Part shown: in pieces, positions 327 through 2,587 of the stretch
Layout of the letters: each line of letters starts with the position of its first letter
Position numbering within the stretch: position 1 is the stretch's first letter
Origin: a virus
Lineage: Duplodnaviria > Heunggongvirae > Uroviricota > Caudoviricetes
Strand: one strand, 5' to 3'
Length of the DNA: 39,723 nt
Virus record (IMG/VR): IMGVR_UViG_2537562231_000011
Notes under the pieces: generated by a model
The model's input: the letters and a program-made list of their open reading frames with translations, nothing else
The model's database searches: none
Told to the model about the DNA's origin: nothing
Made by a program: the position numbers and the translations under genes

Positions 327-1529
327 GTGTTTTCTTGCATTTCGCTGATATCCCAGGATATCGCCAAAATGCGACTGCGCCTGATGCAGACCGATACACA
401 GGGGATCCGCCGTGAAAAACGGCAGGGGGATATTGCCCGTCTCTGTCGTCGTCCCAATGCACAGCAGAATCGTATCCAGTTTTTTGAACTGTGGCTGAAC
501 GCCAAACTGCGTCACGGCAATACGGTGGTGCTGAAAATCCGTAACTCCCGGGGGCAGATCAAAGAACTGCGTATTCTGGACTGGAGCCGGGTTGAACCTC
601 TGGTGGCGGATGACGGCGAGGTGTTCTATCGCATTACACCGGACCGGAACTGCGGGATCACGGAGGCGGTGACGGTGCCTGCCCGGGAAGTGATCCACGA
701 CCGGTTTAACTGTTTTTTTCATCCGCTTGTGGGGCTGCCGCCGGTGTATGCCGCCGGGCTGGCGGCCACGCAGGGGCATCATATTCAGGCAAATTCAACG
801 TCTTTTTTCAGAAATGGCGGCAGGCCGTCCGGGGTGATTGAGATCCCCGGCAGTATAACGGAAGAAAATGCGAAAAAACTGAAGAGCAACTGGGACAGCG
901 GGTATACCGGCGAAAATGCGGGGAAAACGGCGATCCTGAGCAACGGGGCGAAATATAACCCCACGACGTTTTCACCGGTGGATGCGCAGACGGTGGAACA
1001 ACTGAAGATGACGGCTGAAATTGTCTGTTCGGTGTTCCGTGTCCCGGCCTACAAGATTGGCGTTGGCCAGCCGCCTTCCAGTGACAACGTGGAGGCGCTG
1101 GAGCAGCAGTATTATTCCCAGTGTCTGCAGACGCTGATTGAGTCCATTGAGCTGTTACTGGATGAGGCGCTGGAAACGGGGGAAAACGAGAGCACGGAGT
1201 TTGACGTCACCACGCTGCTGAGAATGGACAGCGAACGGCGCATGAAAACACTGGGTGAATCGGTGAAAAATACGCTTCTCACGCCCAATGAGGCCCGTAA
1301 ACGTGAGAACCTGCCGCCCCTGGCCGGCGGTGATGCACTGTATCTTCAGCAGCAGAACTACAGTCTGGAGGCGCTGTCCCGTCGTGATGCCCGTGAAGAT
1401 CCGTTTGCGTCGTCCGGGAAAAGAGTTTCAGCCCAACTGCCTGACGGCGCATCTGACGGTAATAAGGCAATCAGTGAAACAGAGCATGGTGCGTTGAAAG
1501 CGATGTTGAGGGGGATACTGAGAAAATGA
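327..1529 (+). CDS. Phage portal protein, HK97 family; N-terminus probably truncated by the IS
   Basis: 400-aa ORF with portal-like motifs (FFRNGGRPSGVIEIPG, GKTAILSNGAKY, VGQPPSSDN). The conserved N-terminal helix (ISLISQDIAKMRLRL) sits at the very start, leaving no room for the usual ~40 residues before it. Confidence 0.7.
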   Translation: MFSCISLISQDIAKMRLRLMQTDTQGIRREKRQGDIARLCRRPNAQQNRIQFFELWLNAKLRHGNTVVLKIRNSRGQIKELRILDWSRVEPLVADDGEVFYRITPDRNCGITEAVTVPAREVIHDRFNCFFHPLVGLPPVYAAGLAATQGHHIQANSTSFFRNGGRPSGVIEIPGSITEENAKKLKSNWDSGYTGENAGKTAILSNGAKYNPTTFSPVDAQTVEQLKMTAEIVCSVFRVPAYKIGVGQPPSSDNVEALEQQYYSQCLQTLIESIELLLDEALETGENESTEFDVTTLLRMDSERRMKTLGESVKNTLLTPNEARKRENLPPLAGGDALYLQQQNYSLEALSRRDAREDPFASSGKRVSAQLPDGASDGNKAISETEHGALKAMLRGILRK

Positions 1530-2587
1530 CGGAACGGGAACTGTCCATTATTCGTGCACTGGGCGAAGAATTCGCCACGGTGCTGGCGGATTTACAGCAC
1601 ACATTTGAGGAGAAGATGGCCGCGCAGGCACAAGCGTTTGAAGAGAAACTGGCTTCCCTGTCGGCGGTATTACAGAAGCATGTGACGGTGGATGAGGTAC
1701 ATCCGGTTCTGCAGGCGATGGTGGATGACGCTGTGGGGACCATTCCGGTACCGCGTGATGGTCGTGATTATGATCCGGATGTACTGCAGCAGGCGGTGAA
1801 TGATGCGGTTGCGAATATTCCGGTACCGGCGGACGGCAAAAGTATCACCCCCGATGATGTGCGTCCGATGCTTGAGCAGATGGTGAAAGAGGCTGTAAGC
1901 CATATCCCTGCTCCGCGTGACGGTCGTGATTATGATCCGGATGTACTGCAGCAGGCGGTGAATGATGCGGTTGCGAATATTCCGGTACCGGCGGACGGCA
2001 AAAGTATCACCCCCGATGATGTGCGTCCGATGCTTGAGCAGATGGTGAAAGAGGCCGTAAGCCATATCCCTGCTCCGCGTGATGGTCGTGATTACGATCC
2101 GGAAGTACTGAAGCAGGCGGTTCTGGAGGCGGTGAATGCCCTTCCGGCTCCGCAGGACGGGCGTGATGCCACGGCACTGGAAGTGCTCCCCGCCATTGAC
2201 GATCAAAAATCCTTTCCCCGGGGCACGTATGCCACACACCTTGGAGGACTCTGGCGGGCGTATGAAAAAACGCACGGGATGCGGGGATGGGAATGCCTGG
2301 TTGACGGGGTGGCGGATATTGACGTCAGTATGACGGGTGAGCGGTTGTTCTCTGTGGTGATCCGGCAGAGCAGTGGCCAGTGTACGGAAAAAACATTTTC
2401 CCTGCCGGTGATGCTCTACCGCGGAGTGTTCAGAGCCGGTGAAACCTACCACCCCGGCGATACGGTGACGTGGGGGGGCTCGCTGTGGCACTGCAACAGT
2501 ATGACCGCCGATAAACCGGGGGATGCGCATGCATCTGGCTGGACGCTGGCTGCCAAACGGGGACGGGATGCTGGAGGCGGAAAATGA
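1526..2587 (+). CDS. Repeat-containing protein: coiled-coil N-terminus, 54-aa tandem repeats, CBM5/12-like C-terminal motif; function unknown
   Basis: ATG start overlapping the portal stop. Two near-identical 54-aa repeats (IPxPRDGRDYDPDVLQQAVNDAVANIPVPADGKSITPDDVRPMLEQMVKEAVSH) plus a divergent third. C-terminus YHPGDTVTWGGSLWHCNSMTADKPGD...SGWTL resembles a chitin/carbohydrate-binding module. Confidence 0.5.
   Translation: MTERELSIIRALGEEFATVLADLQHTFEEKMAAQAQAFEEKLASLSAVLQKHVTVDEVHPVLQAMVDDAVGTIPVPRDGRDYDPDVLQQAVNDAVANIPVPADGKSITPDDVRPMLEQMVKEAVSHIPAPRDGRDYDPDVLQQAVNDAVANIPVPADGKSITPDDVRPMLEQMVKEAVSHIPAPRDGRDYDPEVLKQAVLEAVNALPAPQDGRDATALEVLPAIDDQKSFPRGTYATHLGGLWRAYEKTHGMRGWECLVDGVADIDVSMTGERLFSVVIRQSSGQCTEKTFSLPVMLYRGVFRAGETYHPGDTVTWGGSLWHCNSMTADKPGDAHASGWTLAAKRGRDAGGGK
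1742..2170 (+). repeat. Tandem direct repeat, 162-bp unit: two near-identical copies (1742-1903, 1904-2065) plus a degenerate partial third
   Basis: Direct sequence comparison: the two full copies differ at only a few nucleotides. Confidence 0.85.

Follow-up and report, generated by a model that had tools for sequence, protein, structure and literature searches.

Fibres that accompany the neck or the head of tailed phages have been described in several systems. The fibritin (Wac) of phage T4 is made of helical segments with short loops between them, is encoded beside neck and head-completion genes and is accessory to adsorption. The head fibre of phage phi29, gp8.5, is reportedly trimeric, with a stalk of repeating helix-turn-helix units and a distal knob, and is said to be dispensable in the laboratory. 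The neck passage structure (collar and whiskers) of lactococcal phages comprises non-essential neck fibres of variable length, some with collagen-like repeats and carbohydrate-binding modules (CBM), and SPP1 gp12 as well as the collagen-like fibre proteins of prophages are trimeric surface proteins with Gly-X-Y (GXY) repeats. In other phages a portal-associated polypeptide is encoded after the portal gene (SPP1 gp7, Mu gpF) or forms the C-terminal part of it (the P22 portal barrel). The present analysis concerns a gene, here called X, in the virus record IMGVR_UViG_2537562231_000011 of IMG/VR (Caudoviricetes), the whole stretch of 39,723 nucleotides (nt) being referred to as the window. X lies between the portal and connector genes of a prophage related to Shiga toxin (Stx)-converting phages. 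It is a fixed component of a widespread HK97-type head-neck module, set among portal-vertex and neck genes, and it is neither a substitute for the capsid gene nor the portal proper.

A preliminary description, made from the DNA of the window, spoke of a 353-amino-acid (aa) protein with a coiled-coil N-terminus, two nearly identical 54-aa repeats and a C-terminus resembling chitin-binding modules, and it proved accurate in open reading frame (ORF) calls, repeat finding and structural modelling. Tandem Repeats Finder reports a 162-bp tandem repeat of 2.3 copies (97% matches, score 707); its two full copies are identical at 160 of 162 positions, and residues 76-129 equal residues 130-183. The underlying unit of about 27 aa, a short helix followed by [I/L]PxPxDGxD, occurs six times. 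The AlphaFold2 model, based on a 101-sequence alignment, has a mean predicted local distance difference test (pLDDT) score of 80.9, with residues 3-50 modelled as a single long amphipathic helix (pLDDT 89-96) and residues ~221-340 as a beta-rich domain (95-98), here called the knob. The calculated isoelectric point is 4.5 for the N-terminal region (aa 1-72) and 4.3 for the stalk. The last ~50 residues of the beta domain superpose on solved CBM5/12 chitin-binding domains, a small antiparallel beta fold, so the suspected likeness held at the level of fold, with a PF02839 score that stays under the gathering threshold. Residues Y308, W321 and W339 are kept in at least 90% of the 101 homologues. 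The knob is predicted to be of a glycan-binding type with a CBM5/12 fold; in contrast to the domains of ChiB, ChiC and ChiA1, the module of X is the end of a larger beta domain, for the remainder of which no clear fold match was obtained. The tip of an alphaproteobacterial X (locus L154) also has a CBM5/12-like counterpart, at 40-43% identity, in a 491-aa protein of Shigella phage Sf12 (L172, 2386-3861), Kosakonia phage 305 and Rogue1-like phages. The gene of this protein sits between the head decoration and major capsid genes of T1-like phages, and its product is annotated both as “tail fiber protein” and as “DNA polymerase”.

Neither sequence nor fold searches related X to a capsid or scaffold family, the result that would have refuted the preliminary reading, and no capsid, protease, portal, MuF or scaffold fold was found among the matches listed. 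X gave no match with the portal models PF04860 and TIGR01537 or with PF04233 (Phage_Mu_F), and phmmer together with the 101-sequence profile returned from the PDB only designed helical repeats and weak CBM matches (E 7e-4 to 0.3 with the profile). Pfam entry PF28083 is listed for homologues. X was also considered as an HK97-family portal protein and rejected, as it lacks a match to either portal model and is a separate polypeptide in the window.

The gene order around X was compared in 80 loci from a one-genome-per-species collection, recovered by a profile search of contigs with a 12-sequence C-terminal alignment, and in a viral set of 26 further loci, 21 of these at 46-60% identity; neighbour genes were labelled by iterative profile searches seeded with the window proteins. 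The species loci cover Enterobacterales, Pseudomonas, Burkholderiales, Rhizobiales and Sphingomonadales (Alpha-, Beta- and Gammaproteobacteria), and a few come from metagenome bins assigned to Clostridia and Solibacteraceae. A near-invariant order is found: TerS, TerL, protease/capsid, portal, X, connector, head closure, gp10, gp17 and major tail protein. The portal ORF lies directly 5' of X in 73 of the 80 species loci, with an overlap that is almost always 1-16 nt, and the gp6-like connector directly 3' of it in 75, overlapping mostly by 4 nt. Of the 73 species loci in which both genes were identified, about 70 have X as a separate gene whose start overlaps the portal stop, and these comparisons mark the separate arrangement as ancestral and general.

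It had been supposed that a protease and a capsid gene belong between portal and connector, and that X might have replaced them. That premise fails, as both genes lie upstream of the portal in intact relatives. Intact copies read HNH endonuclease, TerS, TerL, a 645-aa prohead protease/major capsid protein, a 73-aa protein, portal, X and connector; the protease/capsid gene stands between the large terminase and the portal in Stx1a phage LC567825, in E. coli E110019 and in 70 of the 80 other-species loci (as a single fused ORF in 47, as shorter or split ORFs in 23). Nothing has been replaced, X being present alongside protease and capsid, and replacement of the capsid module is ruled out by the upstream position of the protease-capsid gene in every intact relative. 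Protease and capsid form one ORF of ~645 aa in Enterobacterales, Pseudomonas and many Rhizobiales (L089-L112, L136-L146), and two adjacent ORFs (~200 aa and ~470-500 aa) in Burkholderiales and Sphingomonadales (L113-L129, L147, L153, L161). The same module was seen in Pseudomonas phage vB_PaS_IME307 (genus Detrevirus; L171, 6359-7363), a cultured siphophage of P. aeruginosa whose 334-aa X is annotated as a second “portal protein”, and which is a possible experimental system outside E. coli.

An exhaustive HMMER search places homologues of X in 5589 clusters (50% identity) at E<=1e-3 and in 636 at 1e-30. The sequence starts at an own methionine in 142 of the top 149 representatives; the median length is 392 aa, the protein length ranges from ~120 to 1240 aa and the number of stalk motifs from 0 to 19. 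Repeat copy number varies among related prophages as well, the E. coli alleles stepping by whole 54-aa units (245, 299, 353, 405-407, 461 and 569 aa), and the occurrence of copy-number alleles in many independent records rules out an assembly artefact. In 18 of the 80 species loci and 20 of the 149 representatives the helix-loop repeats are exchanged, at the same position, for a collagen-like stalk of (GXY)8-57. Such homologues include those of a Clostridia metagenome bin (L133, L134), Phyllobacterium (L137, L138) and Paraburkholderia (L121, L126, L127), and some carry GXY tails after the knob as well. Short GXY triplets beside the knob are seen throughout the family. The X of the window has no long GXY run, only isolated short triplets that bracket the knob (DGRDA before it, KRGRDA/G after it). 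Since runs of the collagen type wind into helices of three chains, the X family is most simply read as one of trimeric fibres; from its collagen-like homologues X itself is most likely a trimer. Some alphaproteobacterial homologues add beta-hairpin repeats of the form IDRDGxLxLTxxDGxxxxLGxVVGKDG, which we take to be of the kind seen in fibre shafts, and in BFVD the X model has as neighbours phage proteins that bear the names “collagen triple helix repeat”, ChiC_BD, CBM5/12 and tail fibre. The second alternative in the preliminary description, a fibre-like gene, is probably right: the variable stalk, the collagen-like exchanges and the CBM5/12-type tip fit it. The premise of a capsid slot behind the portal has to be abandoned.

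The same architecture bears on the idea that X is a non-structural assembly factor, that is a scaffold or a portal-incorporation chaperone absent from the mature virion. The N-terminal two-thirds are helical, acidic and elongated, the gene adjoins the portal gene, and we know of no separate scaffold gene in HK97-type modules. However, the most conserved part is the beta-rich CBM-type knob and not a coat-binding helix-turn-helix, collagen stalks of up to 57 triplets and a fourfold variation in length among close relatives are unfit for a scaffold, and the 645-aa protease-capsid protein would seem to have room for a scaffold-like linker of its own between its domains. An assembly factor is the least probable of the explanations weighed here.

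Compared with the described fibres, X resembles T4 fibritin in its N-terminal helix, segmented helices, distal globular domain and portal/connector gene neighbours. It differs in having a 140-aa beta knob with the CBM5/12 fold and not a foldon, a stalk that can be collagen-like and a setting of siphovirus-type modules, and no sequence or fold match between X and fibritin was found. The lactococcal collar-whisker fibres belong to phages of Gram-positive hosts, have their genes behind those of the tail and share no sequence relationship with X, whereas X is strictly conserved in its module. With SPP1 gp12 the GXY runs of the collagen-type homologues are shared, but no homology outside the repeats. 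The phi29 fibre gp8.5 is encoded beside the capsid gene and occupies quasi-threefold capsid sites in ~55 copies, whereas X overlaps the portal and connector genes; gp8.5 is not among the top structural matches listed for X. These likenesses raise the question of whether X could be a capsid-wide head fibre or decoration, with trimers seated on the threefold or quasi-threefold positions of a shell of HK97 fold, as in phi29 gp8.5 or SPP1 gp12. The trimer-type architecture, the helix-turn repeats, which are reminiscent of the phi29 head fibre, and the location of the gene in the head half of the module speak for it. The overlaps of X with its neighbours suggest a low copy number, and a placement all over the shell is distinctly unlikely.

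The explanation preferred here, with a probability of roughly 0.45, is that X forms an external fibre of the neck or portal vertex which helps adsorption. The N-terminal coiled-coil helix, proposed from the model as the oligomerisation and attachment segment, would join the X chains and anchor them to the particle; the stalk, whose repeats can be exchanged for another type and whose length varies freely, would carry the distal beta knob with its CBM5/12-type end; the trimer would be mounted on the outside at or near the portal vertex or neck, in the manner of a whisker or collar fibre; and the knob would make weak, reversible contacts with host-surface polysaccharide and so aid adsorption. We infer the location and the role in adsorption by analogy with the fibres named above. 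Placement at the portal vertex is suggested by the invariant position between portal and connector, the overlaps on both sides and the recurrent fusion with the portal; the stop-start overlaps on both sides also point to a low, portal-like expression. An external appendage is suggested by the fibre architecture, the sugar-binding type of knob, the unconstrained length and the acidity.

The relation between X and the portal gene is the source of the database label. In the window the junction reads AGGGGGA with five guanines (G5), and the portal frame closes at TGA 1527-1529, overlapping the ATG of X at 1526. In other E. coli alleles the tract has six guanines (G6), the frame reads through ...AMFRGDTEKMTERELS... 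without a stop, and portal and X are made as one in-frame protein. Databases name X “portal protein” because this tract splits or fuses the two genes in E. coli. The Prokaryotic Genome Annotation Pipeline (PGAP) merges portal and X into a single portal gene, called “frameshifted” in E. coli E110019 and intact, with 861 aa, in AREA_502; the “portal protein” profile PHROG 2271 extends over 859 positions and takes in both ORFs, and X matches the “portal” PHROGs 2271 and 1289 only through clustered fused or mislabelled sequences. Most of the top protein-search matches to X are portal-X fusions. The exact sequence of X is already in NCBI, where it goes under “carbohydrate-binding family V/XII” in the entry of one depositor and under “putative portal protein-like protein” in those of others.

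Both alleles are common. Among 39 non-duplicate E. coli-type loci of IMG/VR, counted by locus, 22 are G5 and 17 are G6, each with several repeat numbers and several flank haplotypes. Short megablast queries found the junction in 1055 of 5426 complete E. coli genomes, in ~2520 copies. Counted per record (chromosome or plasmid) and per flank, and inflated by clonal sampling, the commonest flank has at least one exact G6 copy in 752 records and at least one exact G5 copy in 366, and the flank haplotype of the window has G5 in 4 records and never G6; in all, at least 752 complete records hold the fused and at least 370 the split allele, and some strains (e.g. E2863) carry both. The genes are split in phages BP-4795 and Lys8385Vzw and fused in the record of phage 2851, and prophages of the Sakai Sp10 type are annotated with a separate X ORF. 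Purifying selection acts on both alleles: the ratio of non-synonymous to synonymous polymorphism (pN/pS) in E. coli is 0.16 (fused) vs 0.26 (split) for the knob and 0.44 vs 0.42 for the N-terminus, from an alignment anchored on the motif, recombination between prophages weakening the comparison of fused with split.

These data also allow the reading implied by PGAP to be judged, namely that X is the 3' half of a frameshifted portal pseudogene, a remnant with no role of its own. In its favour are the one-gene calls in E110019 and AREA_502, the extent of PHROG 2271 over both ORFs, the excess of G6 over G5 on the commonest flank and the disabled state of the window prophage (see below). This is nevertheless very unlikely, since the genes are separate with overlapping stop and start in nearly all species loci, the great majority of representatives begin with their own methionine, X has no portal domain, and in split alleles, phage BP-4795 being one carrier, the ORF is intact and subject to purifying selection.

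The fused alleles weigh more heavily in another respect, as the chief difficulty for an external fibre. In known structures the C-terminus of the portal faces the interior of the capsid, and X may accordingly be an internal, portal-tethered head protein of the core or ejection type, sitting on the portal crown inside the capsid. It would be bound non-covalently (split) or covalently (fused), would organise the DNA axis or exit with the DNA, and its knob might bind the glycan strands of peptidoglycan. Several points count for this and against an external fibre. The fused allele is frequent in complete E. coli chromosomes and plasmids, is present in the phage 2851 record and is constrained. With X inside the head such fusions argue for an internal location, unless these copies do not function or their retained ATG still yields free X. 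Fusions of the portal C-terminus to the X N-terminus arose independently in E. coli and Pantoea, and the slot after the portal is that of internal minor head proteins of the MuF/SPP1 gp7 type (compare Portal_Mu and MuF in Table 1). The strict conservation of X looks more like that of a core component than of an optional adhesin. To these are added the low to moderate confidence of the helix-loop units of the stalk (pLDDT 53-77, modelled as a monomer), the score of X against PF02839 (18.9 bits, E 0.0015, below the gathering threshold of 26.2 bits; homologues 19.4-20 bits) and the literature, in which no functional or proteomic study placing X in the virion was found; papers on the Sakai prophages, ANT_H14, BiPBO1, Ab31 and 7-7-1 hold no such data on X. 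Elongated heads of 44 x 95 nm were seen on the lambdoid particles of O157 Sakai, which the authors were unable to trace to a single lambdoid prophage (PMC2669165).

On the other side, sequence and fold searches gave X no similarity to MuF or to known ejection or core proteins; stalks of the collagen type, a CBM-like knob and acidity of the stalk typify external fibres, and it is fibre proteins that X has as structural neighbours. A fused E. coli allele does resemble a portal with a long C-terminal extension, as in the P22 barrel, but that barrel is a single helix per subunit, whereas X is a repeat stalk with a beta knob and lacks a MuF domain. Besides the E. coli cluster, P0232 (1237 aa) is the only portal fusion among the top 149 representatives, so fusions are rare outside E. 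coli (~2 of 150 top clusters); the fusions retain the methionine of X, which is consistent with recent single-base events, and the E. coli counts are inflated by clonal sampling. An internal position of X is on balance rather unlikely, though it has to be taken seriously. The Pantoea fusion, from Candidatus Pantoea communis (L110, 3680-7411; P0232), has ~1240 aa with ~35 helix + PEPEPLPDI repeats and keeps the methionine of X at the junction.

It may be asked whether the G5/G6 tract is a heritable switch, and not a sign of decay, between a free external X and an X welded to the twelve portal subunits and buried in the head, or forming an axial core. If this were true, a single prophage lineage would produce by turns two kinds of virion that differ at the surface or in ejection; we regard it as very unlikely. 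A weaker variant, in which low-level -1 slippage (G5) or internal initiation (G6) gives a mixture of portal, portal-X and free X, is a long shot. A single tRNA could conceivably slip by -1 at G-GGG (1511-1514) or at A-AAA ahead of the TGA stop (1523-1526), but the portal/X junction has no X-XXY-YYZ heptamer, the sole hairpin 3' of it (1550-1591, z -2.26) starts more than 20 nt downstream, at an unsuitable spacing, and in other genera stop and start codons simply overlap at the junction. Programmed frameshifting thus finds no convincing signal here and is likewise a long shot.

About one in five complete E. coli genomes carries X, including Stx1- and Stx2-converting prophages of siphovirus type, and annotations everywhere make it either a second “portal protein” or a portal pseudogene with a frameshift. 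PGAP frameshift flags on split copies probably make intact prophages look defective, and recognition of X corrects this systematic annotation error, as intact prophages are no longer scored as defective. The sequence itself is public and widespread but mislabelled. X is best filed as an uncharacterised member of the class of phage fibres, notable for its fixed post-portal position and its split/fused polymorphism. By analogy with known fibres it is a candidate for host-surface recognition in Stx phages, and its natural split/fused polymorphism with the portal could be used for mapping its location.

The features of the window are collected in Table 1. The mechanical ORF call for the portal is 327-1529 and matches PF04860 at 7e-80 and TIGR01537 at 5e-103; its residue 6 aligns with residue 60 in the portal of LC567825, which has 455 aa. 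Over its first 7.3 kb the window matches, at 96-97.5% identity, the late regions of numerous E. coli prophages and of phages that convert to Stx1a, Stx2a and Stx2c. Homology to the Stx-phage head module starts at 314/315, right where ISEc23 stops, because bases 1-314 are the end of this insertion sequence (IS), inside which the window begins and which interrupts the portal gene near codon 51. The tape measure gene, 3243 nt long in relatives, is broken at ~7294 by a Mu-like transposable prophage which occupies the rest of the window and is 99.9% identical to prophages of E. coli strains 600029 and HH35. The lambdoid prophage is a disabled remnant, with an IS in its portal gene and a Mu-like insertion in its tape measure gene; its terminase and capsid genes, if they survive, sit beyond the IS and outside the window, and the local copy of X is of little consequence.

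Table 1. Features of the lambdoid remnant and of the Mu-like prophage in the window
Feature	Position	Strand	Evidence or remark
ISEc23, terminal 314 nt (IS66 family)	1..314	n/a	99.4% identity to copy in E. coli AREA_502 (locus L086)
Portal gene, HK97 family, without about the first 50 codons	315..1529	+	PF04860, TIGR01537
G5 tract	1510..1514	+	Junction sequences compared across loci; ends 11 nt 5' of X ATG
Gene X, 353 aa, fibre-like, portal-adjacent	1526..2587	+	Database label “phage portal protein”
X N-terminal region, aa 1-72	1526..1741	+	AlphaFold2 helix, residues 3-50
X stalk, aa 73-215	1742..2170	+	Six helix + [I/L]PxPxDGxD units; 162-bp x 2.3 repeat at 1751-2121
X C-terminal globular beta domain, aa 216-353	2171..2587	+	CBM5/12-like fold, residues ~297-345 (nt ~2414-2560)
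gp6-like head-tail connector	2584..2910	+	PF05135 1e-7; ATG overlaps X stop (ATGA)
Head closure gene	2921-3271	+	Pfam set PF05521, PF04883, PF11367 for 2921..4055
HK97 gp10-like gene	3268-3714	+	Same Pfam set
gp17-like tail completion gene	3711-4055	+	Same Pfam set
Major tail protein, tail assembly chaperone pair, cut tape measure gene	4122..7294	+	Homology to Stx phages stops at 7294
Mu-like transposable prophage	7295-39723		Inserted in the lambdoid tape measure gene
Mu-like: candidate repressor ORF	7541-8086	-	No Pfam match
Mu-like: MuA	8505-10592		
Mu-like: MuB	10665-11606		
Mu-like: Portal_Mu	21835-23433		
Mu-like: MuF with MuF_C	23417-24748		PF04233 4.8e-30
Mu-like: gpT capsid	26654-27601		
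Mu-like: tail sheath	29262-30764		

Two minor observations concern the tail genes of the remnant. The major tail protein (4122-4838) has a C-terminal Ig-like domain (Ig_3, I-set). It is followed, in the 4805-5532 region, by a tail assembly chaperone (PF06222) and a short ORF named “assembly protein T” in relatives, a layout in which a -1 frameshift of the G/GT type is usual.

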